Assembly: GCA_030628245.1 (NCBI GenBank)
Contig: DAOVRI010000001.1
Span: 1 to 36,431, forward strand
Direction of reading: 5' to 3'
Source: Dehalococcoidales bacterium
GTDB taxonomy: Bacteria > Chloroflexota > Dehalococcoidia > Dehalococcoidales > RBG-16-60-22
Length of the DNA stretch: 36,431 bases
Part shown: positions 16,907 through 34,408 of the stretch, one piece after another
Layout of the letters: each line of letters begins with the position of its first letter
Numbering within the stretch: position 1 is the stretch's first letter
The notes under the pieces: generated by a model
What the model saw: only the letters and a program-made list of their open reading frames with translations
What the model was told of the DNA's origin: nothing
The model's database searches: none
Made by a program: the position numbers and the translations under genes

Positions 16907-19549
16907 ATGGTACTGAAAAAGGATAACCCCGTAAAAGCAGCCAAGGGTGAAAAAAGCGTCTGTAAAGGGCTTGGTTTCTGCTCAATATCGGGGGACGCGA
17001 ATTCCTCCGTTATTGATGTCAAAGATGGGAGAATCGTCAGGGTCAGACCGCTGCACTACGACTGGAAATATAAACCTGAAGAATTCAACCCATGGAAGAT
17101 GGAGTCACGCGGTCAGGTCTTTGAGCCAAGCATGAAATCACTGATAGGACCTTTCAGCCTGGCCTATAAGAAGCGGGCTATGTCCCTCAACAGGATTCTA
17201 CATCCGTTAAAAAGAGTCGATTGGGACCCCAACGGAGAAAGAAACACGCAGAACCGGGGCAAGAGCGGCTATGTCAGAATCTCCTGGGACGAGGCCCTGG
17301 ACATCATCGCCAGCGAGATAAAGAGGGTAAACAAGAAGTACGGGCCTTACACGATACTTGCTCAGGCGGATGGTCACGGGGAAACGAAAACCGTACACGC
17401 TCCCCACGGCTGCCAGAGAAGGCTCCTCGACCTTCTGGGGGGATATACCATACAGATGAGGAACCCGGACAGCTGGGAAGGCTGGTACTGGGGTGCCAAG
17501 CATACCTGGGGATGTGAAAATCTGGGTCAACAGTATCCTTTAACCAATGTAATCCCGGATATAGCGGATTACTCGGAGCTGGTGCTGTTCTGGGGTTGCG
17601 ACGTGGAAACCACCCCCTGGGGCTGGCAGGGCCAGCTGCCGAGTCGGCTGTGCTACTGGTTCACCGACCTGGGAATAAAGCAGGTATATATCTGCCCGGA
17701 CCTGAACTACGGAGCGGCGGTTCATGCCGATAAATGGATACCTATATGGCCCAATACCGACGCGGCTATGCGACTGGCCATCGCCCATGTCTGGCTCACC
17801 GAAGGAATCTACGATAAGGATTACGTGGCGAATCACGCCTTTGGATTTGACAAGTTTGCCGAATACGTTCTGGGTAAGGAAGACGGAGTCGCCAAGACCC
17901 CCAAATGGGCGGAGGAGAAATGCGGGGTCCCATCCCGGATTGTCAAAGCCCTGGCCAGGGATTGGGCATCAAAAAAGACATCCATAGCGCATGGCAACGG
18001 CGGTTCTTCTATCAGGGGGCCTTACTCGACAGAGCCCGCCCGGATTGAGGTCTGCCTGCTGGGCATGCAGGGACTGGGTAAGCCCGGCGCGCACTTTGTA
18101 AAAATGATTGAATGGGGCCTGTTTTTTGACCCGGGCTGGCATCCCCTGCCCCGGGCGACAGAGCTACCGGACGTAAATGCCGCCGGTCGCGGGCAGCGGG
18201 TAGGCAGTCCGGCTGTGCAGAGAGGTCTGGCGGCGGATGGTGAAAAGGAGGACATGCAATTCCCCAAGCAGTTCATACCCAAGACCCTCATTCACGATGC
18301 CATTCTTAATCCTCCCCTCACCTGGTACGGTACTACCAGTGCCGGGTTCCCGCGTGACGACCAGTTCGTTCAGTACAAGTACCCGGTAGACGGGTGCTCT
18401 GAAATACACATGATATGGTCCGATACGCCCTGTTTGCTGACGTGCTGGAATGACAGCAACAGCACCGCCAGAGCGTACCAGAGCCCTAAAATCGAGTTCA
18501 TGCTGGTGCAGCACCCCTGGATGGAGAACGACTGCCTCTTCGCCGATATCCTCCTGCCCGTCAATACCAAGTTCGAGGAAGAGGATATCGCCACCGATAA
18601 CTTCAGCGGCCAGTTCAATACCGTGATGTATGAGGACCAGTGCATAGAGCCCAGAGGCGAGTCCAAGACCGACTACGAGGTAGTCTGCATGATAGCCGAA
18701 AGGCTGGGCCTGCTGAAAGAGTACACCAGGGGCCGGTCTGTCAAGGATTGGATAGAGTTCGGCTTTGACCACTCGGAAGTAGCCCCTCTGATCAGCTACG
18801 AGGAACTCAAAGAGAAAGGCTATTATGTTGTGGCCACCGACCCGGACTGGAAGAAACACAAGCCCGGCTTGAGCGGCTTCTGTGAAGACCCGGAGAAAAA
18901 CCCCCTGAAGACCCCTTCCGGGAAGATAGAGTACTATTCCCAGTCTCTGGCGCAGCACTTCCCCGATGACGAGGAGAGGCCGCCGGTTCCTCACTGGATT
19001 GAAAAGGGTGTGAGTCACGATGAAAGCCTTTCCAGCCAGAGAGCCAGGAACTATCCCCTGCTCATAATGTCCAACCACGGCCGGTGGCGGGTGCACGCCA
19101 ACCTTGATGACATAAGCTGGTTCCACGAAATTAAAACCTGCAAGGTTATCGGGGCGGACGGCTACCACTATGAGCCCATCTGGATTCACCCGGCGGACGC
19201 TGAAAAGAGGGGTATCGCCAACGGGGACGTGGTTAAGGTATTCAACGAGAGGGGTGGGGTCCTCGTGGGCGCTTACGTGACGGAGAGAATAATGCCCGGC
19301 GTGGTATATGTCGACCACGGTGCCAGGTACGACCCGATAATCGTGGGCGAGCTTGATAGAGGCGGCGCCATTAATACCATCAGTCCGCATAATTGTACCT
19401 CCAAAAACTGCGCGGGGATGGCGACCAGCGGTTACCTGGTAGAGGTAGGGCGTACCGACCTGGACGAAATGAGGAGACAGTACCCCGAAGCCTTCAACAG
19501 GCCGTACGATAAGGCAACCGGGCAACTTATAGAGCGAGTCATGGTTTAA
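16907..19549 (+). CDS. molybdopterin (bis-MGD) oxidoreductase catalytic subunit, pyrogallol-phloroglucinol transhydroxylase (AthL) / resorcinol-hydroxylase-like
   Basis: 880 aa. There is no N-terminal 4-Cys Fe-S motif and no twin-arginine signal. DPNGERN, ISWDEALD, NPDSWEGWYWG, GFDKFAEYVLGKEDGVAKTPKWAEEKCGVP and the C-terminal molybdopterin-binding barrel (IWIHPADAEKRGIANGDVVKVFNERGGV) match my recollection of AthL. Confidence 0.8.
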   Translation: MVLKKDNPVKAAKGEKSVCKGLGFCSISGDANSSVIDVKDGRIVRVRPLHYDWKYKPEEFNPWKMESRGQVFEPSMKSLIGPFSLAYKKRAMSLNRILHPLKRVDWDPNGERNTQNRGKSGYVRISWDEALDIIASEIKRVNKKYGPYTILAQADGHGETKTVHAPHGCQRRLLDLLGGYTIQMRNPDSWEGWYWGAKHTWGCENLGQQYPLTNVIPDIADYSELVLFWGCDVETTPWGWQGQLPSRLCYWFTDLGIKQVYICPDLNYGAAVHADKWIPIWPNTDAAMRLAIAHVWLTEGIYDKDYVANHAFGFDKFAEYVLGKEDGVAKTPKWAEEKCGVPSRIVKALARDWASKKTSIAHGNGGSSIRGPYSTEPARIEVCLLGMQGLGKPGAHFVKMIEWGLFFDPGWHPLPRATELPDVNAAGRGQRVGSPAVQRGLAADGEKEDMQFPKQFIPKTLIHDAILNPPLTWYGTTSAGFPRDDQFVQYKYPVDGCSEIHMIWSDTPCLLTCWNDSNSTARAYQSPKIEFMLVQHPWMENDCLFADILLPVNTKFEEEDIATDNFSGQFNTVMYEDQCIEPRGESKTDYEVVCMIAERLGLLKEYTRGRSVKDWIEFGFDHSEVAPLISYEELKEKGYYVVATDPDWKKHKPGLSGFCEDPEKNPLKTPSGKIEYYSQSLAQHFPDDEERPPVPHWIEKGVSHDESLSSQRARNYPLLIMSNHGRWRVHANLDDISWFHEIKTCKVIGADGYHYEPIWIHPADAEKRGIANGDVVKVFNERGGVLVGAYVTERIMPGVVYVDHGARYDPIIVGELDRGGAINTISPHNCTSKNCAGMATSGYLVEVGRTDLDEMRRQYPEAFNRPYDKATGQLIERVMV

Positions 19550-19646
19550 TAGTCCCACCCATTGCCCCGAGTAAATCCGGACGATGCTTAACGAGAACGG
19601 GCAACGCCGGGCTTACTATGTCTTTTATTTACGGGGAGGATGTAGA

Positions 19647-20222
19647 GTGATATTAATTATCGGGATAACCGGGGCTTCTGGAGCGATATACGGCATCCGG
19701 CTGCTCGAGGTATTATCGTCCAATAAAGAAGTGGAAACACACCTTATCATTTCTGAAGTCGGAGAAGAAATTATAAGGCATGAGACCGATTGGGGGCTGG
19801 AGCAGGTAAGAGCCCTGGCGGATGTCTGCTACGACATCAACGATATCGGGGCCAGGCTTTCCAGCGGCTCGTTCAAGAGGGACGGCATGGTGATTGCCCC
19901 CTGCAGCATGAAGACCCTTTCGGCACTGGCGAACTCATACACGGATAACCTGATTACCCGCGCCGCCGATATCGCATTGAAAGAGAGAAAGAGGCTGGTT
20001 TTGCTGGCGAGAGAGACCCCGCTTCATCTGGGTCACCTGAGAAACATGGTAAAGCTGACGGAGATGGGCGCTATTGTCTTTCCGCCGATTCCCGCCTTTT
20101 ATCATAAACCGGAGACAATCCGGGACCTCGTCGACCACACGGTCGGTAAGGTTCTGGACGTATTTGATATCAAGCACGACCTCTTCAAAAGATGGGAGGG
20201 CCTGAACAGCGAAGATAAGTAA
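19647..20222 (+). CDS. ubiX: flavin prenyltransferase UbiX (prFMN synthase)
   Basis: The GTG at 19647 lies 7 nt after GGAGG and gives VILIIGITGASGAIYG. The APCSMKTLSALA and LKERKRLVLLARETPL motifs are also present. The longer ORF from 19584 adds an atypical N-terminus. Confidence 0.9.
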   Translation: MILIIGITGASGAIYGIRLLEVLSSNKEVETHLIISEVGEEIIRHETDWGLEQVRALADVCYDINDIGARLSSGSFKRDGMVIAPCSMKTLSALANSYTDNLITRAADIALKERKRLVLLARETPLHLGHLRNMVKLTEMGAIVFPPIPAFYHKPETIRDLVDHTVGKVLDVFDIKHDLFKRWEGLNSEDK

Positions 20223-27081: not shown

Positions 27082-27119
27082 TCATGTAATCTTAAAAAGT
27101 CACGTGGGAGGAAATGAAT

Positions 27120-27608
27120 ATGAAAGTAAAAGTAATTATGGCAGGTCTGATGGTTCTTCTGGCACTGTCCCTGCTCGCCTGCTCATCGGGGCCAACGGGA
27201 GACTCTACAGAGCCTGAAAAGCCCGCCACAAAGCCAAGTACAACCAGTTACGCAGCCGCGACCACTGTGGAGTTTTATACGTGTAACGATTTTGCGGATG
27301 AGCCAAATATCACGGATGAAATTGAATTTACAGCTAACAAGGGAGTAACGGTAATACTGTGCTCTAATCGGACAACCGGCTTCCAGTGGAATGAAGAGGC
27401 ACAGATAAGTGACACATCAGTAGTAGAGCAGACAGGCCATAGTTATGCCGCACCCTCTGCCAGCAAGGTTGGAGCTGCGGGAACGGAAAAGTTTGTCTTC
27501 ACGGGGGTCAACCCGGGCACGGCCACGGTATCTCTGGAATACAGCCGGGACTGGGAAGGCGGCGAGAAGGCCGAATGGACATGTACCCTGACCATCACTG
27601 TGAAGTAG
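27120..27608 (+). CDS. lipoprotein, chagasin/ICP-like (MEROPS I42) cysteine-peptidase inhibitor
   Basis: Signal peptide with lipobox LSLLAC. NRTTGFQW, GAAGT and SRDWEG resemble the three chagasin loop motifs (NPTTG, GxGG, RPW). The ATG at 27120 is 8 nt from GGGAGG; the ATG at 27114 is only 2 nt away. Confidence 0.6.
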   Translation: MKVKVIMAGLMVLLALSLLACSSGPTGDSTEPEKPATKPSTTSYAAATTVEFYTCNDFADEPNITDEIEFTANKGVTVILCSNRTTGFQWNEEAQISDTSVVEQTGHSYAAPSASKVGAAGTEKFVFTGVNPGTATVSLEYSRDWEGGEKAEWTCTLTITVK

Positions 27609-27632
27609 GTAGCTTTCAGGAGTAGTAATAAC

Positions 27633-27679
27633 GGCAAAATGCTGGGGCCCCTGAATAAGAGGTTCCCCAGCATTTTGCC
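27633..27679. terminator. bidirectional hairpin terminator between convergent genes
   Basis: Perfect 15-bp inverted repeat GGCAAAATGCTGGGG / CCCCAGCATTTTGCC with a 17-nt loop, located between the lipoprotein stop (27608) and the UbiD stop (27701). The U-tracts are weak. Confidence 0.55.
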
Positions 27680-27700
27680 TGTATAACCCATGTTGTACTG

Positions 27701-29155
27701 TTACAGGTTGTATTCCTTCCATCTCCTCTTCACCAGTTCCTCGGTCTCCGGCCGAGAATAGTGACATTTCGGAGGAAATCTCTGATTACCCCACTCCGCG
27801 CGCACGGGGTGGAGCTCCCAATCCGTAGTGGCATCGATCAGTAGTTTACTGGCTACGGCCGCCCCGTATTCAAGTTCCGCCCTCAGGTCATAGGCGACGC
27901 TGACGTCAATAGGCGACCCCATATATAAGGGGTAGACAACCAGGTCCCTGTCAAAATCCACCTTATTGTGCATGGCGCCCATGAGCGCCGCGGGGTTGCG
28001 AATGTCCACATCCTCTTCCACTACCATCAATATATTGAAGGGGTGACCGGCGAACTTGGAGCCCCATAAGGCAGCGGCTATTTGCCTCGGCTGTCCCTGA
28101 TACGTTTTATGAATTTTAACCGCTGATATCGGCCCCGTGGTAACATCAAGCACTCCGGGAATTTCGTGGGCTTCCAGGGTATTCCAGTTAACCACCGACA
28201 TCATAGTACTGACGGCTGCCCTTATCTCGGTAACGCCTTCTCTGGTACCCACCAGAGAACCACGGTAAATGGCATCGTTTCTGTGGGTGATGCAGCTGAC
28301 TTCCACCACCGGTCTCTTTCTCGCTTCCCCGTAAAACCCTGACCCCTCACCGAAGGGCCCTTCTATTTCGTAAGTGCTTGGGTCAGGGGACATAGTGCCC
28401 TCAACCACTATTTCGGCGGATGCGGGCACTTCAATATCGGAAGTCTCACATTTAACAAGCTCGACAGGCTCCTGCCTCAGCGCCCCGACCAGTTCATACT
28501 CAGGCCCGATAACAGGGCTGCCGGCGACAACTATTAAGGTGGGGTCCCAGCCGTAGACGAATGCCACGGGCATGGGTTTGCCCATCTCCTGGTACTTACT
28601 ATAAGTGATACCCCAGTCCTTCATTGGCATCAAAAGCACGCCTATCTTGTTCTTACTTAATATCGTGCCCCGGTAAACACCTGCATTGTTTTGCCCGGTA
28701 TCGGGGTTCCTAGTGACGGTAGCGTTAAATGTGTTGATATAGCGTCCGTTATCAAGCGGGTGCCACTTGGGGACCGGGAGCTGGAAAAGGTCCACGTCTT
28801 CACCCTTAACGATGTTTTCCTTGACCGGCCCCGTTTTGACCTTCACCGTCTCCAAAGGCTTCTTCATCCTGTTTCTAATCGTCTGAATAGTCTCTGTAGT
28901 GGGCGTATCTTTGGGCAGGCCGAGCATGAGGTTGACACGGGAGCGCGTTCCCAGGCCATTGGTAAAAAGCTTTCTGGAAAGCGTAGCTTCGTGGTCTTTG
29001 ATATTCTCAAATAGAAGCGCCGGGCCTTCTTGTACATAGACCTTTCTTATGATTTGAGATATCTCGTCATCCCAGTCCACCCTGGCTGTTACTCTCTTTA
29101 ACTCACCCTCAGCATCCAGCTGGGCCATCCATGCTCGCAAGTCTCTATCTGGCAC
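27701..29155 (-). CDS. UbiD-family (prFMN-dependent) reversible aromatic/enoic acid decarboxylase
   Basis: 484 aa with a GTG start 8 nt after AGGAGG. Shows the UbiD layout and the characteristic EGPFGEGSGFYG block. Confidence 0.9.
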   Translation of the reverse strand: MPDRDLRAWMAQLDAEGELKRVTARVDWDDEISQIIRKVYVQEGPALLFENIKDHEATLSRKLFTNGLGTRSRVNLMLGLPKDTPTTETIQTIRNRMKKPLETVKVKTGPVKENIVKGEDVDLFQLPVPKWHPLDNGRYINTFNATVTRNPDTGQNNAGVYRGTILSKNKIGVLLMPMKDWGITYSKYQEMGKPMPVAFVYGWDPTLIVVAGSPVIGPEYELVGALRQEPVELVKCETSDIEVPASAEIVVEGTMSPDPSTYEIEGPFGEGSGFYGEARKRPVVEVSCITHRNDAIYRGSLVGTREGVTEIRAAVSTMMSVVNWNTLEAHEIPGVLDVTTGPISAVKIHKTYQGQPRQIAAALWGSKFAGHPFNILMVVEEDVDIRNPAALMGAMHNKVDFDRDLVVYPLYMGSPIDVSVAYDLRAELEYGAAVASKLLIDATTDWELHPVRAEWGNQRFPPKCHYSRPETEELVKRRWKEYNL

Positions 29156-29198
29156 TGTTTTACCTCCTGAAATATGAAAATCTCAACCCGTTAAGAAC

Positions 29199-30533
29199 CT
29201 ATTTATATATACCGTATTCCTTGGTAAAATCAATCATTGCTTTAAGGTTTTCTGGCTTGACCCTGTCAATGGCAGCCCCATTGGCCATGATATAACCGCC
29301 GCCGGGGGCGCAGGTATCGATGAGCTGGCGGCATCTTTCCTTCACCTGCTCGGTTGTGCCGGTAATCAGCAGCGAGGAAGACACGTTGCCACTTATGCAG
29401 GCAACATCACCCAGTATTTTCTTCACCCTGGCCATGTCTGTCACGTCGAACGTCCATGCAGTCTTGGCTTTAGGCACGTCCCTGATAACTTCCAGACGCG
29501 AGTTATAGCTGCCCTCAACAAAGGGAAACGGTACGCAGCCCTCTTCAATCAAGCCCATGAAAACCTTTCTCAAGGTGGGCCAGTAGTAGGTCTTGAACTG
29601 TTCATCGGAGAGGAAACCGTCGGCCCCTTTATGCAGCGGCATAAACACCAGGGGATTTCCGTTCATCTTTGACATGGACACCCCCATCTTAATCATGAAC
29701 GGCGTTATTACCTCCAGAGCCTGGAGGAGTTTGGCGGGCTGCCGATACATATCCACCATTACCCCTTTGGTGCCTCTGAGAGTATCACCAATAACATCAA
29801 AAGGTGCCTTGGCAAGGCCACCGAGGAAGCCGGGAAATCCGGCGGCGGCCATCTCATGACTGAAACCACTGACAACCCCCATCCATTTCATGGTTTCAGC
29901 CCCTGCCTCAAAAAGAGTTTTATAGGCAGCCTGAACGTCGGGCATAGCGAACGGCATGACAAAAGCACCGAACGAACCCTCCTGGACGTTGGTGGGACTT
30001 TGCAGCATCTTCAAGGGCTCCAGGGCTCCGCATATGCGAGGTAAGTAGGTGCTGTTCCAGAAATGTGACGGGTCCTGAATCAAGGCCTCATATTCATCCG
30101 CCATCATGTATTCGCCTTCAATGCACTGGTAGGTATTTTCGGGCGCGACTCCATGCCCGGGCCAGGCATATAACTTGACGTCAAGAATTTCAAAGAGCCT
30201 TCCCGAGCCAGCGAAAAACGCGCCTGGGTTCACATCCGGCTCGAAGTCCAGGACGTATTTCCTGATGGTGGTGGTGAGCTTTTCGTAGTCATACATCATA
30301 TCATGAGGGGTCAGGCCTGCATAGTAAGCGGGGAAAAAGTTAACAATGTTAAAGATAGGCACCCTGTCCGGCGTTTTCTTCAACTGGACCGCATCTTTTA
30401 CCCGTGTTACTCTCTCCTTGTATGACTTCTCGGCCTCGGGGCTGGTAAACTCTATGCCCTGTGGCGAAAGCCACGAATCAAACATCGCCTCCTGCTTTTC
30501 ATCCAGTAATAACCCCGCCTGTTGCTCTTCCAT
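29199..30533 (-). CDS. uroporphyrinogen-decarboxylase (URO-D) fold protein, either MtaA/CmuA-like methyltransferase or decarboxylase
   Basis: 444 aa. N-terminal PDRVPIF motif and C-terminal PGGGYIMANGAAID block, both typical of the URO-D family. SD GGGAGG upstream. Lies 43 nt upstream of the UbiD gene. Confidence 0.7.
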   Translation of the reverse strand: MEEQQAGLLLDEKQEAMFDSWLSPQGIEFTSPEAEKSYKERVTRVKDAVQLKKTPDRVPIFNIVNFFPAYYAGLTPHDMMYDYEKLTTTIRKYVLDFEPDVNPGAFFAGSGRLFEILDVKLYAWPGHGVAPENTYQCIEGEYMMADEYEALIQDPSHFWNSTYLPRICGALEPLKMLQSPTNVQEGSFGAFVMPFAMPDVQAAYKTLFEAGAETMKWMGVVSGFSHEMAAAGFPGFLGGLAKAPFDVIGDTLRGTKGVMVDMYRQPAKLLQALEVITPFMIKMGVSMSKMNGNPLVFMPLHKGADGFLSDEQFKTYYWPTLRKVFMGLIEEGCVPFPFVEGSYNSRLEVIRDVPKAKTAWTFDVTDMARVKKILGDVACISGNVSSSLLITGTTEQVKERCRQLIDTCAPGGGYIMANGAAIDRVKPENLKAMIDFTKEYGIYK

Positions 30534-30678
30534 TTTTGTTTACCTCCCGTACATTTTTTGCAGGGATTTTTTACTTAACGCCTGCCCCTTTTTCGGCAAG
30601 CAATACCACTAATACTACGAGGCCCGGGATAATGCACTCTCCACTGGCAAAACGGCTTCCTGCATCGCCCTTGTCAGA

Positions 30679-30707
30679 ATATTACATAGGCGGCACCTGG
30701 CTGTCAA
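30679..30707 (-). promoter_or_regulatory. sigma70-like promoter candidate (TTGACA-17-TAATAT) for the URO-D-like/UbiD operon
   Basis: On the minus strand, TTGACA is at 30707-30702 and TAATAT at 30684-30679. Motif match only. Confidence 0.35.
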
Positions 30708-30830: not shown

Positions 30831-30872
30831 TGAAAGAAAAGGCTCCGGAGGCAGTAAACCCTCCGAAGCCTT
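30831..30872 (-). terminator. Rho-independent terminator after dctP
   Basis: The minus-strand RNA forms a 13-bp stem AAGGCUUCGGAGG / CCUCCGGAGCCUU (one G-U pair) with an 8-nt loop, followed by UUUUCUUUCA. It begins 26 nt after the dctP stop. Confidence 0.7.
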
Positions 30873-30897
30873 TCTATCCCGCTAATAGTCTGAAGGC

Positions 30898-32082
30898 TTA
30901 TTTCTGAGTGGTATATTCTTCTATCAGAGACTTCCAGGTCGCGAGGACCCTGTCGGTAACCTCTTCGCTGTAACCCAGGTCATGACACATATCTGCCCAG
31001 GTAGGAAACGCGTATGTTACAGCTGCTTCATCCCACAGGGCCGACTGCTCCGGGGTGGGGGTGTTGATAGTGATGCCCGATTCTATAATAGCGGGTTCAC
31101 TATGTACGGTCTCGTCATACATACCCTGGGCGCATACTATCAAGGCATCTTCCCAAGTAGCATCGAATATCGCCTGGTCTTCCGGCGGCAGGGAGTCATA
31201 GAATTCGTGGCTCGTCAGGATGAGCAGGGTCCCGGCGCCGAAGGTCTGTTTCAAGATGTAGTCACAAAGTTCGAACATGTTGTAAGGGCCTATCATGGCA
31301 TAGGTCATGATAGCGGCATCGGTTACCCCTTTCTGCATGTTATCGTACGCCTGAGGAGGTATCTGGAAGACGCCGGCAGCGCCGAAAGCACTCATCATAT
31401 CTGCCAGAGCGCCCAGTGCCCCGCCGACCTTGAGGCCTTCAAGGTCTTCCGGCACGATTACCTCTTTATTCGCACTAATAAGGTAACCCGGGTCTATTGC
31501 AAGGGCTTTAATCAAATGATAGGGTTCGAACTCGGCTGCAACTTCCGGTACCTTATAGAATTCTTTCACGGCATCGAATGATGCGAGGAACTCCTCCATG
31601 CTAACACCCTTCTTGTGAAACGACAGCGTGGGGAGATCGCCAACCGCGGCTAATGGGAAATCGGCCATTTTGCTTCCGGTAGAGGTCATGACGATTTCAC
31701 AGACACCTTGTTTTACCGCGTCCAGAGAGCCTGCATCGTCTAATAAGGCCGAAAATCCATAAGTCTCCACGATGTAGCGACCGTCCGTCCGTTTCTCAAA
31801 CTCATCCGCCCACCACTCGTAGCCCACACCTACGGCTGAAAACGGGGGCATCGTGTAGTTAAATTTAATCGTCCTGACCTCTGGCGCTGGTGCTGGTTCC
31901 GGTGCCGGAGCTGGTGCTGGCTTTTCTGGTTCCGGAGCTGGTGCTGGAGCTGGTGCTGGCTTTTCCGGTGCTGGTGCTGGTGCCGGGGCTGGTGCCGGGG
32001 CTGGCTCGGCACAGGCAGACAGTAGCAGCGATGCCAGTAAAACTACAGTGAGTACTGCAATCATCCAGTTTCTTTTCTTCAT
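30898..32082 (-). CDS. dctP: TRAP transporter solute-binding protein (DctP-type), lipoprotein with Pro-Ala-rich tether
   Basis: 394 aa. Signal peptide with lipobox LLSAC, a 44-residue (PA)n/EK linker, then a DctP-like periplasmic-binding domain. SD AAGGAGG upstream. Divergent from dctQM. Confidence 0.8.
   Translation of the reverse strand: MKKRNWMIAVLTVVLLASLLLSACAEPAPAPAPAPAPAPEKPAPAPAPAPEPEKPAPAPAPEPAPAPEVRTIKFNYTMPPFSAVGVGYEWWADEFEKRTDGRYIVETYGFSALLDDAGSLDAVKQGVCEIVMTSTGSKMADFPLAAVGDLPTLSFHKKGVSMEEFLASFDAVKEFYKVPEVAAEFEPYHLIKALAIDPGYLISANKEVIVPEDLEGLKVGGALGALADMMSAFGAAGVFQIPPQAYDNMQKGVTDAAIMTYAMIGPYNMFELCDYILKQTFGAGTLLILTSHEFYDSLPPEDQAIFDATWEDALIVCAQGMYDETVHSEPAIIESGITINTPTPEQSALWDEAAVTYAFPTWADMCHDLGYSEEVTDRVLATWKSLIEEYTTQK
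31879..32010 (-). repeat. in-frame GC-rich tandem repeat encoding the Pro-Ala(-Glu-Lys) linker of DctP
   Basis: The plus strand shows reiterated GCTGGTGCTGG units, including two near-identical GGAGCTGGTGCTGGCTTTTC(T/C)GG copies. It translates to AEPAPAPAPAPAPAPEKPAPAPAPAPEPEKPAPAPAPEPAPAPE. Confidence 0.85.
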
Positions 32083-32598: not shown

Positions 32599-33126
32599 TT
32601 GCTACAGCAAGAGGAGCGAGTATTATTACGACATGGTAAGGTAATACTGATAATTAGCAGGGTGATGGCGGTAATTGCGGCCGGAGTGCTCGGTGTCATG
32701 ATGATTCTCACCGTTGCCGATGTAGCCGGCCGCAATCTTTTTCTTAAACCGATAGAGGGTACCTACGAACTAGTCGGCATTATGCTGGTGATAGCCGGCT
32801 CCCTGGGGCTGGGCTATTGCCAGCTTAATCTGGGGAATATCAGGATTACGGTATTATCTGACCTCTTCTCCGCCAGAGGGCAAGCTATCATTTTTCTCGT
32901 TGCTTATATTATAGCCGCCGTGACAACCGGCATGGTATGCTGGCAGGGGGGAATAAGAGCCTGGGACTATATCTTTAAAACGCTTGGCGGTATTATAGTA
33001 ACTTTACGTTTACCGTTATGGCCCTTCATGATGCTGCTGGCTGTAGGTTTCGGCTGGGCATGTATAATATTTCTGATTGATATTTATCTCACGGCTAAAG
33101 AGGTATTCAGGCATGGGTCAGACTGA
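32599..33126 (+). CDS. dctQ: TRAP transporter small permease (DctQ-type)
   Basis: 175 aa with a TTG start just after AGGAGG. Four hydrophobic segments. Its end overlaps the dctM start. Confidence 0.75.
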   Translation: MLQQEERVLLRHGKVILIISRVMAVIAAGVLGVMMILTVADVAGRNLFLKPIEGTYELVGIMLVIAGSLGLGYCQLNLGNIRITVLSDLFSARGQAIIFLVAYIIAAVTTGMVCWQGGIRAWDYIFKTLGGIIVTLRLPLWPFMMLLAVGFGWACIIFLIDIYLTAKEVFRHGSD

Positions 33127-34408
33127 AGTAGGTTTAATCGGCATAGCCGTTCTTTTGGTAATCCTGATAATGGGAGTGCATGTCGGTTTTGGTTTAATTC
33201 TCATCGGTTTTATCGGTTATGGGATCATAGGCGGCTTTCAGGGCGCCATTGCCAATCTGGCCATACTGCCGTTTGATAGACTGAACAATTACCATTTTGC
33301 CGTGCTGCCGCTCTTCCTGCTTATGGGCTCATTCGTCGCTAATAGCGGTGTAGGCAGGGAGGCATATGAGATGGCCCGTTCCTGGCTCGGGCATCTGAAA
33401 GGCGGCCTGGGTATGGCCACGGTTTTTGCCTGTGCAATGATTGCCGCCTGTGCCGGTACCAGCGCCGTCGGTGCGATACTCATGGGCCAGGTGGCTTACC
33501 CGGAGATGAAAAAAATGGGGTATAGTAGACAGTTAGCCTCCGGGTGTATCGCGGCCGGGGGCACCATGGGGATTTTGATACCGCCGAGCATGGGGTTTGT
33601 CCTTATCGGTATCCTCACGGAGTTGTCTATCGGCAAGCTTTTTATCGCCGGGATAATACCCGGTGTTCTCGAGGCTTTATTTTATGTGCTAACCATTTTC
33701 CTCTTGTGCAGGTTTAATCCGAAACTGGCCCCGGCATCGTTTAAAACGACCTGGAGAGATAAGGTGTTTTCCCTGAAGCTTACCTGGCCGGTAGTCCTTC
33801 TCTTTATCCTGATAATGGGAGGTATTTACGGCGGCATCTTTACACCAACAGAGGCCGGCGGCATCGGAGCCTTCGGGGCGCTGGTTATCGGTCTGGCCAA
33901 GAGAAAGCTAGGCCTTCACGGCGTCTGGGACTCCCTGATGGAGTGCGCGAGGTTGGTCGCCATGATTGTCGTCATGCTGATTGGCGCCTATATGTTTAAT
34001 GCCTTCCTAGCCATTACCCAGATTCCAACTACCATCAGTGAGTTTATCTCAGGACTGCCGGTACCACCTCTGGTTATCCTGGTTGCTGTCCTCATCTTTT
34101 ATATTATATGCGGCATGTTCTTTGATGTTCTTGCCGTACTTATCCTCACCATTCCTATCATGTACCCCTTGATGGAATCGCTGGGGTTCGACCTGATATG
34201 GTACAGCGTGCTCATGGTAAGGATTATCGAGATAGGAATGGTCACGCCGCCTTTCGGCATTAACCTGTTTATCCTTACCGGAGTTATTAATGAGCCTCTT
34301 GGCGTCCTCTACCGCGGTATAATACCATTCGTCATTGCCGACATATGCCATGTTGCCCTGCTGGTGGCTGTTCCTTCGCTCAGCACTTTCTTACCCAGTC
34401 TGATGTGA
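33113..34408 (+). CDS. dctM: TRAP transporter large permease (DctM-type)
   Basis: Polytopic membrane protein of about 431 aa. The ATG at 33113 (MGQTEVGLIG...) is preceded by AAGAGG and overlaps the dctQ stop. The ORF-track start at 33077 lies deeper inside dctQ. Confidence 0.9.
   Translation: MGQTEVGLIGIAVLLVILIMGVHVGFGLILIGFIGYGIIGGFQGAIANLAILPFDRLNNYHFAVLPLFLLMGSFVANSGVGREAYEMARSWLGHLKGGLGMATVFACAMIAACAGTSAVGAILMGQVAYPEMKKMGYSRQLASGCIAAGGTMGILIPPSMGFVLIGILTELSIGKLFIAGIIPGVLEALFYVLTIFLLCRFNPKLAPASFKTTWRDKVFSLKLTWPVVLLFILIMGGIYGGIFTPTEAGGIGAFGALVIGLAKRKLGLHGVWDSLMECARLVAMIVVMLIGAYMFNAFLAITQIPTTISEFISGLPVPPLVILVAVLIFYIICGMFFDVLAVLILTIPIMYPLMESLGFDLIWYSVLMVRIIEIGMVTPPFGINLFILTGVINEPLGVLYRGIIPFVIADICHVALLVAVPSLSTFLPSLM

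Follow-up and report, generated by a model that had tools for sequence, protein, structure and literature searches.

Introduction

The general four-component scheme of the cobalamin-dependent O-demethylases combines a substrate-binding methyltransferase I (MT-I), a corrinoid protein, a methyltransferase II (MT-II) and a reductive activase (PMC10989822, PMC13222342). CdmB of Acetobacterium dehalogenans serves as MT-I in a corrinoid system of three components, and within the UroD superfamily it falls into a clade shared with the O-demethylase MT-Is MtvB, OdmB, VdmB and MtoB (PMC13222342). CdmB is a UroD-like TIM barrel with extra N-terminal and inter-strand helices, its closest fold is that of human UROD, and zinc is absent from it as it is from MtvB (PMC13222342). 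Among enzymes of the UbiD family, structure 7pda is that of PhdA (PMC10850782). Here we describe two adjacent genes of a Dehalococcoidales bacterium that encode a URO-D-fold protein (P0001) and a UbiD-family (de)carboxylase (P0002). The window, the whole stretch of DNA that was analysed, is the 36,431-nt contig C210 (GenBank DAOVRI010000001.1) of a metagenome-assembled genome (MAG) of 1.67 Mb and 81% completeness; the labels of related contigs read Dehalococcoidales or Dehalococcoidaceae. P0001 is probably the MT-I of a four-component cobalamin-dependent O-demethylase that has lost its own corrinoid protein gene and acts in trans, its product being decarboxylated by the co-transcribed UbiD.

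An original prediction, made from the window alone, had divided URO-D-fold proteins into cofactor-less HemE-type decarboxylases and zinc methyltransferases of the MtaA/MtbA type. Both classes stand, but a third was missing, the MT-Is of O-demethylase and chloromethane systems, and it is this class that holds P0001. In the following, annotated loci are cited by L number and contigs of the genome by C number.

Results

Identity of the URO-D-fold protein P0001

P0001 is encoded at 29199..30533 on the minus strand (444 aa, ATG start; Pfam URO-D, 74 bits) and gives its length to the '444-type' subclade of MT-I-type methyltransferases. The DRVP and GGGYIM motifs, read correctly in the original prediction, are residues 56-59 and 411-416, and D56, R57, P59, G412 and G413 were invariant in 42 family members. 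Compared with solved structures, P0001 matched CdmB best (9rui; E 4.5e-37, 131 bits, residues 31-101 and 195-441), followed by HemE (E 3.3e-4, 23 bits). The grouping with true HemE that the original prediction had held out as its counter-case was therefore not found. Scores against the named family models were far below their cut-offs, with 24 bits vs 302.95 for the hemE equivalog TIGR01464, to which the C-terminal third alone aligned, 45.7 bits vs 235.4 for the MtaA/CmuA model TIGR01463 and 30.4 bits vs 400 for the MtaA model NF040654.

The H-x-C-x(n)-C zinc signature, put forward earlier as the deciding check, is absent from P0001, in which the nearly invariant His301 reads H301-K-G and the sole nearly invariant cysteine of the family is C379. 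This test is not diagnostic because CdmB and MtvB are themselves without zinc (PMC13222342), so that its failure need not mean a decarboxylase. The AlphaFold2 model of P0001 (pLDDT 94.3, pTM 0.92) is a UroD-like TIM barrel with about 100 residues more than UROD/MtaA-like folds. Foldseek comparison of this model with the PDB returned UROD/HemE, MtaA-like and MetE folds, the best being UROD and MtaA-like (TMq 0.54-0.58) in a structure library that stops in April 2026, predates 9rui and so cannot separate MT-I from HemE. A UROD match is to be expected for an MT-I, since CdmB itself is closest to human UROD. The gene is under purifying selection (dN/dS 0.09-0.19). The sequence sets P0001 apart from both HemE and the MtaA-type zinc enzymes; the solved protein closest to it is an MT-I, and P0001 is most likely the substrate-binding MT-I of a B12-dependent O-demethylase. 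It belongs to a known enzyme class, the O-demethylase-type MT-Is, as a member of an uncharacterised subclade.

Partner components elsewhere in the genome

The original prediction had reported no corrinoid protein, activase or MT-I gene in the window. The first two absences were borne out, with no B12-binding domain and no RACo activase on contig C210; the third was not, as the URO-D gene is itself of the MT-I type. The genome search that had been proposed did locate corrinoid proteins, on contigs C43 and C89. Contig C43 (L001 3603-13524) carries, in order, a major facilitator superfamily transporter, a 210-aa corrinoid protein, six tandem MT-I genes whose products are 44-52% identical to P0001, a pterin-binding MT-II and a DUF169 protein, and is a multi-substrate O-demethylase array. 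Contig C89 has the order LysR - corrinoid protein (210 aa) - MT-I, and its MT-I is the closest paralogue of P0001 (57%). The DxHxxG motif was found in both corrinoid proteins. The C43 MT-II passed the methyl-tetrahydrofolate:corrinoid methyltransferase model NF005719 (291.7 vs cut-off 259), and a RACo-type activase with Fer2 and RACo linker, middle and C-terminal domains was located on C47. Wood-Ljungdahl genes are present (four copies of MTHFR, AcsB/CdhC and FTHFS), and the methyl group therefore has a destination.

The genome gave 12 URO-D matches, 11 of them of the long type, comprising P0001 and ten paralogues that are 39-57% identical to it. In this incomplete assembly the ratio was thus 11 MT-I : 2 cognate-type corrinoid proteins : 1 MT-II : 1 activase. 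The twelfth match (C95, L008 4915-7999) is a short, ApcE-like protein of 332 aa that adjoins an ApcD-like gene (635 bits vs cut-off 1500). It was considered as a possible true HemE and rejected on account of its ApcE-like character and ApcD-like neighbour; no true HemE was found in the 81%-complete MAG.

Methyltransferases of the MttB family, each with a corrinoid protein of 227-232 aa, were also found on C194 (L003 47-2901) and C70 (L004 207-3172); these pairs are a second set of corrinoid methyltransferases in this small genome, probably acting on quaternary amines or methylamines. In addition, a conserved protein of about 229 aa is encoded 3' of the MT-I in many corrinoid protein - MT-I (- RACo) clusters (L002:3621-4313 on C89, L027:5398-6087, L031, L032 and L036). 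It has a faint match to the methionine-synthase activation domain Met_synt_B12 (E 0.003), and a weaker relative adjoins the MttB/corrinoid protein pair on C194.

Predicted complex with a corrinoid protein

P0001 folded together with the C89 corrinoid protein gave a score of 0.70, compared with 0.00 for the best of three controls. Among 80 solved complexes 58 reached the 0.70 mark, as did 2 of 110 mismatched pairs, counts that are rough because custom alignments were used. At least 97% of contacts were common to the runs, with a partner pLDDT of 84 or more. In the predicted complex the DxHxxG loop of the corrinoid protein (residues 96-101) faces the mouth of the P0001 barrel, where the invariant MT-I residues G128, Q136, E139, F307, S309 and Q312 are also placed. 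The model supports, but does not show, binding of a corrinoid protein by P0001.

Gene context of MT-I relatives

The MT-I family is very large, with a minimum of 6,975 clusters at E <= 0.001. In the top 120 clusters identity was never below 62% and length ranged from 437 to 465 aa, and members came from Dehalococcoidia and Asgard archaea; the highly conserved 444-type subclade retains 64% identity between Dehalococcoidales and Asgard archaea. Homologues of 87-94% identity lie in neighbourhoods syntenic with the window, in the order DctQM / DctP - MT-I - UbiD - I42 inhibitor - flavoprotein trio - aldehyde dehydrogenase (ALDH) - UbiX - AthL-like. At 84% identity the context was unrelated (L040), and at 82% identity (L041) the MT-I lies behind DctP with both the UbiD and the flavoprotein trio missing. 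Homologues at or below 80% identity (57-80%) usually follow a 209-210-aa corrinoid protein gene at 20-40 nt, often with the 229-aa protein and RACo next in line; such linkage was seen at L012, L015, L016, L017 (an Asgard contig), L031, L032 and L036. Linkage to a DxHxxG corrinoid protein, MT-II and activase, absent at the P0001 locus, was present for the C43 and C89 paralogues, for the 57-80% homologues and for an MT-I of a second, '410-type' subclade at L027.

In the MT-I tree, which took in one stray UbiD sequence that is to be disregarded, the copies linked to UbiD make up a clade at the tips, surrounded by copies linked to corrinoid proteins. The arrangement in the window is on this account a derived state of the ordinary corrinoid protein - MT-I unit.

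Conservation and lability of the MT-I/UbiD pair

A total of 41 species-level loci were annotated, and 17 of these had a UbiD at least 76% identical to P0002 together with usable upstream sequence. A 444-type MT-I lies directly 5' of the UbiD in five of the 17 (L044, L046, L051, L052 and L074) and a 410-type MT-I in four (L045, L053, L054 and L060). One further locus (L047, 2485-2605) has DctP followed by an intact UbiD and, between the two, a mere remnant of 41 codons from the 3' end of a 444-type MT-I; the other seven have no MT-I 5' of the UbiD (L048, L049, L050, L056, L057, L058 and L059). The 410-type MT-Is are 62-68% identical among themselves and 45-48% identical to P0001. At L060/L027 the order is DctP-like - corrinoid protein - MT-I - 229 aa - RACo - MT-II - UbiD - short-chain dehydrogenase/reductase (SDR), a complete O-demethylase set. 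The L027 UbiD is 77% identical and the DctP-like protein 39% identical to those of the window, and opposite them lie the ALDH of the window (80% identical) and its 145-aa gene.

With about 11 MT-I genes per genome, and a gene content that we presume to be roughly 1,500-1,700 for a 1.67-Mb genome, an MT-I would be the upstream neighbour of a given gene by chance in less than 1% of cases, compared with an observed nine of 17 loci. The association is far above chance and arose with at least two MT-I subclades. It is recurrent but labile, and confined to one lineage. UbiD remnants without an intact gene were found behind intact 410-type MT-Is at L082 (4929-5413) and L083 (8001-8162). Either gene can be lost independently, which means that MT-I and UbiD are not obligate partners. 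The conservation of the pair assumed earlier thus held for close relatives; in others the pair is replaced by a functionally equivalent one, and in several it is lost. In the UbiD tree 444-linked and 410-linked genes were interleaved, at modest support (0.6-0.95). Between L051 and the window, synonymous divergence (dS) was 0.14 for the MT-I (95% aa identity) and 0.69 for the UbiD (87% aa identity), and this discordance suggests a recombination breakpoint between the two genes.

The UbiD protein P0002

P0002 is encoded at 27701..29155 on the minus strand (484 aa, GTG start) and belongs to an uncharacterised subclade of the prenylated flavin mononucleotide (prFMN)-dependent (de)carboxylases. It contains the Pfam domains UbiD_N, UbiD and UbiD_C (PF20695, PF01977 and PF20696) and passed the family model TIGR00148 (285 bits vs cut-off 244.85). 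No equivalog or subfamily model was reached, with 268.9 vs 650 for VdcC, 233 vs 496 for mena_SCO4490, 229 vs 469 for phenyl_P_beta and 189 vs 788 for UbiD PRK10922. The nearest solved structures were PhdA 7pda (E 6.6e-60) and HmfF; AroY matched at E 1e-27. The motifs GVYR (residues 159-162) and EGPFGE (residues 265-270) were located, which we take to be equivalent to R173, E277 and E282 of Fdc1. P0002 was the only UbiD found in the genome and its gene is under purifying selection (dN/dS 0.08-0.14). Orthologues of 56-96% identity came nearly all from Dehalococcoidales or Chloroflexota MAGs.

A UbiX flavin prenyltransferase, the enzyme that makes prFMN for UbiD, is encoded 7.5 kb from the UbiD gene at 19584..20222 on the plus strand (NCBIfam UbiX family, 281.8 bits vs cut-off 188) and is syntenic with UbiD orthologues in many loci. 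AthL-like genes also often lie near UbiD orthologues (L028, L053 and L063), which would agree with the earlier idea of a polyphenol-processing route. At least six AthL-like molybdopterin subunit genes were found in the genome (C22, C60, C127, C115, C216 and window 16907-19549); some are flanked by a BthL-like Fe-S / CarboxypepD_reg subunit (for example L038:950-1762), and the window copy has none adjacent. NCBIfam gave no specific name to the SDRs beside related loci or to the Amidohydro_2 protein in L028, and hence no clue to the substrate. A reading of the UbiD as a phthaloyl-CoA-decarboxylase-type enzyme (TRAP transporter, CoA-transferase and UbiD/UbiX) was set aside, as it leaves the MT-I unexplained.

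Operon anatomy and neighbouring genes

The two-gene minus-strand operon was confirmed as first described, with open reading frames at 29199-30533 and 27701-29155 and a 43-nt spacer at 29156..29198 on the same strand. By reading of the sequence, an AGGAGG ribosome-binding site stands 7 nt before the UbiD GTG; a consensus scan of the spacer gave no terminator-like site. The TTGACA-17-TAATAT site noted earlier 5' of the MT-I gene is present at 30679..30707 on the minus strand (10/12 matches in a consensus scan). Sites of this kind numbered 11 in the region vs 6.7 +/- 2.9 in shuffled sequence, so that one match alone does not exceed chance expectation. The orthologous spacers between dctP and the MT-I gene nevertheless conserve the two hexamers in L009, L010 and L013, and that of L041 does so in part; the site is promoter-like and is taken as the putative promoter of the MT-I/UbiD unit.

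The position of the operon directly downstream of a terminated dctP was likewise upheld. A terminator hairpin 3' of dctP (approximately 30837..30874, minus strand; 15-bp stem and U-run, -29.5 kcal/mol, z -4.9) parts dctP from the MT-I/UbiD unit, and its stem shows compensatory changes across five related loci. A second strong hairpin with a 15-bp stem stands 3' of the UbiD stop codon (approximately 27633..27679, minus strand), and the 91-nt stretch 27610-27700 folds at -38.1 kcal/mol (z -5.4 vs shuffles); this hairpin is likely a terminator between convergent genes. Both hairpins were missed by the consensus terminator scan and were detected by sequence reading and folding. Rfam gave no match anywhere in the window, and hence no riboswitch in the approximately 145-nt leader. 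From the spacer, the promoter-like site and the flanking hairpins, the MT-I and UbiD genes are a self-contained two-gene operon.

The conserved upstream neighbour of the MT-I gene encodes DctP, the solute-binding protein of a tripartite ATP-independent periplasmic (TRAP) transporter (30898..32082, minus strand; Pfam DctP, 88.7 bits). The membrane subunits DctQ (32599-33126; Pfam DctQ) and DctM (33077-34408; Pfam DctM) are encoded on the plus strand, divergent from dctP, and their synteny is retained in relatives. DctP was found 5' of the MT-I in L009, L010/L011, L013, L041, L025, L046, L051 and L052. Matches of the window DctP to solved TRAP binding proteins were weak (best E 1.6e-17), so that its ligand cannot be deduced from them. 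A gene for a chagasin-family peptidase inhibitor (I42; window 27114-27608, plus strand) converges on the end of the UbiD gene, and its position is kept in L009, L010, L013 and L041, even where the UbiD is missing.

Discussion

Proposed route

The placement of both proteins in their families, the presence of partner genes and UbiX in the genome, the anatomy of the operon and the recurrent linkage of the UbiD to a TRAP binding protein and an MT-I are direct observations. From these we infer what class of substrate is used, which of the two reactions comes first and which corrinoid protein takes part. Demethylation would unmask a ring hydroxyl of the kind needed by phenolic-acid UbiD enzymes, a plausible rationale for the order chosen here. 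The TRAP transporter beside the operon would import a methoxylated aromatic carboxylate, whose methoxy carbon would be offered by the MT-I to the Co(I) of a 210-aa corrinoid protein encoded in trans on C89 or C43. The methyl group would pass to tetrahydrofolate via the pterin-binding MT-II of C43 and on to the Wood-Ljungdahl pathway, and oxidised cobalamin would be repaired by the RACo-type reductive activase of C47. The freed hydroxy-aromatic acid would then be decarboxylated by the prFMN-dependent UbiD, with its cofactor from UbiX. This route is modelled on the four-component scheme of PMC10989822 and PMC13222342. It is in effect the second of two alternatives in the original prediction, an O-demethylation with its corrinoid partner encoded elsewhere that feeds the UbiD, and it drew support from the partners on other contigs, from the homologues that adjoin corrinoid protein genes and from the 77% identical UbiD orthologue inside an O-demethylase operon.

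Several results weigh against it. The nearest characterised relative of P0001, CdmB, uses chloromethane and not methoxy-aromatics (PMC13222342), and the placement in the clade runs through the CdmB match, MtvB, OdmB, VdmB and MtoB having been compared by description only. Residues of the predicted interface were no more conserved than the rest of P0001 (0.66 vs 0.64, permutation p 0.37), and the complex prediction cannot tell a true corrinoid protein from a close cousin, nor the C89 protein from that of C43. The pair is labile, as seen in the MT-I remnant of L047, the UbiD remnants of L082/L083, the missing UbiD of L041 and the seven UbiD orthologues without an MT-I. UbiD homologues at 40-56% identity, or outside Dehalococcoidales, had no MT-I nearby.

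Alternative explanations

The order of the reactions may be the reverse of that proposed, with the UbiD first decarboxylating a methoxy-hydroxy-benzoate (vanillate-type to guaiacol-type phenol) and the MT-I then demethylating the neutral methoxyphenol. Vanillate and syringate carry the free para-hydroxyl that phenolic-acid UbiD enzymes of the VdcC/AroY type use, and in such substrates it would already be available to the UbiD. Characterised MT-Is accept neutral veratrole and guaiacol (PMC13222342, PMC10989822), and no result of the analysis fixes the order. Set against this, the genes run MT-I then UbiD, and at L027 a whole O-demethylase set precedes the UbiD; the tight link to the carboxylate-binding DctP is kept by the MT-I and not by the UbiD, as at L041 where the UbiD is absent; and the UbiD is not close to VdcC (269 bits vs 650) or to AroY (E 1e-27). 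We regard the reversed order as unlikely. The adjacency could also be incidental, the dctP-ubiD spacer being a recombination-prone slot that gains and loses MT-I paralogues whose substrates are unrelated to that of the UbiD. The sharing of the slot by two MT-I subclades (approximately 47% identical) in close, interleaved UbiD lineages, the remnants left by independent deletion of either gene and the discordant divergence at L051 (dS 0.14 and 0.69) all speak for such a slot. A chance neighbour is nevertheless expected in less than 1% of cases and was seen in nine of 17 orthologous loci, at least two MT-I subclades and once a complete O-demethylase operon are involved, and MT-I and UbiD share one promoter-terminator unit with a 43-nt gap. 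Purely incidental adjacency is accordingly rated as quite improbable.

Two further explanations concern P0001 itself. CdmB is its best solved relative, CdmB homologues occur in Asgard archaea from marine sediments, and several origins of haloalkane use within the superfamily have been suggested (PMC13222342); Asgard MAGs likewise contain close homologues of P0001, and P0001 might on these grounds be a CdmB-like MT-I that dehalogenates a haloalkane such as chloromethane rather than an O-demethylase. The match is distant, however (131 bits over partial length), and CdmB is the only MT-I of the clade in the structure database. Chloromethane, a gas, needs no TRAP binding protein and has no tie to an aromatic-acid decarboxylase, whereas the conserved neighbours are DctP and UbiD, and we consider a haloalkane substrate very unlikely. 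The other alternative of the original prediction, a two-decarboxylase cassette in which the URO-D-fold protein is a cofactor-less HemE-like decarboxylase working on a carboxymethyl group or a second carboxyl, either ahead of the UbiD or following it, drew on the fold, which best matches UROD structures (Foldseek TMq 0.54-0.58), and on the lack of a corrinoid gene in the window. It was not sustained. The hemE score is 24 bits vs 303, P0001 does not group with HemE, and the HemE match is 10^33-fold worse than that to CdmB. The UROD fold is expected of an MT-I, since the closest structure to CdmB is human UROD (PMC13222342). Family members adjoin corrinoid proteins across bacteria and archaea, and the predicted corrinoid protein complex scored 0.70 vs 0.00 for controls. 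Of the explanations considered, this one is given the least credence.

Implications

A broader reading of the trans-acting MT-I can be offered only tentatively, and we doubt it somewhat more than we favour it. One hub of corrinoid protein, MT-II and activase may serve about a dozen MT-I spokes, with individual MT-I genes released from it and inserted, as interchangeable cassettes, into catabolic operons for particular substrates. Here the cassette would be flanked by a TRAP binding protein and a UbiD of a new clade, giving a 'demethylate, then decarboxylate' module for lignin-derived methoxybenzoates in uncultured sediment Dehalococcoidales. If this is so, the MT-I in the slot, 444-type or 410-type, would determine the methoxy-acid that reaches the shared decarboxylase. 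An MT-I separated from its partners, co-transcribed with a UbiD behind a TRAP binding protein and with MT-I subclades exchanged in the slot, was not found described before. No paper linking O-demethylases with UbiD was found within a limited library, which is weak evidence of novelty, and a paper on the flavoprotein (PMC13416013) made no mention of UbiD, a corrinoid protein or a TRAP transporter.

Chloroflexota of the Dehalococcoidales type are common in anoxic sediments and uncultured, and their carbon sources are largely guessed. The locus offers a testable module for them, in which TRAP uptake is followed by B12-dependent O-demethylation, the source of a methyl group for the Wood-Ljungdahl pathway, and then by prFMN-dependent decarboxylation; it would tie these bacteria to lignin-derived methoxylated aromatic acids. 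An MT-I without a nearby corrinoid partner need be neither a HemE nor part of a broken system, and "uroporphyrinogen decarboxylase" is a frequent annotation error for such proteins. The exchange of MT-I subclades before one UbiD clade may serve as a natural experiment on how the substrate range of O-demethylases evolves, and the UbiD clade is a new candidate (de)carboxylase of a phenolic substrate.

Comparison with known systems

P0001 shares the UroD-fold TIM barrel with extensions, at approximately 410-450 aa, with MtvB (Moorella thermoacetica), OdmB/VdmB (A. dehalogenans, Desulfitobacterium hafniense), MtoB (Methermicoccus shengliensis) and CdmB (A. dehalogenans, PDB 9rui). As in those systems, its paralogues and orthologues stand in clusters with corrinoid protein, MT-II and activase, and its barrel mouth is the predicted docking site for the cobalamin face of a corrinoid protein. 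It also lacks the MtaA-type zinc motif, as do CdmB and MtvB (PMC13222342). Unlike in those systems, the genes next to that of P0001 include none for a corrinoid protein, an MT-II or an activase; it is instead transcribed together with a UbiD gene, downstream of one for a TRAP binding protein. The TIM-barrel fold is common to P0001 and HemE/UROD (TMq 0.54-0.58), but P0001 is approximately 100 residues longer, has no heme-pathway context and belongs to a family linked to corrinoid proteins. With the zinc MT-IIs MtaA, MtbA and CmuA it has in common the URO-D fold (TMq 0.57 for the Methanosarcina mazei methyltransferase 4ay7/4ay8) and a weak profile similarity in the C-terminal half; in clusters of the P0001 family, by contrast, a pterin-binding protein serves as the MT-II. 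P0002 shares the three UbiD domains, the GVYR and EGPFGE motifs and a nearby UbiX with PhdA (7pda), HmfF (6h6v), Escherichia coli UbiD, BsdC/VdcC and AroY. It differs from these named enzymes in having no adjoining gene for a small VdcD/LpdD-type subunit, and its clade is confined to Dehalococcoidales-type MAGs, where it is linked to TRAP, MT-I and AthL-like genes.

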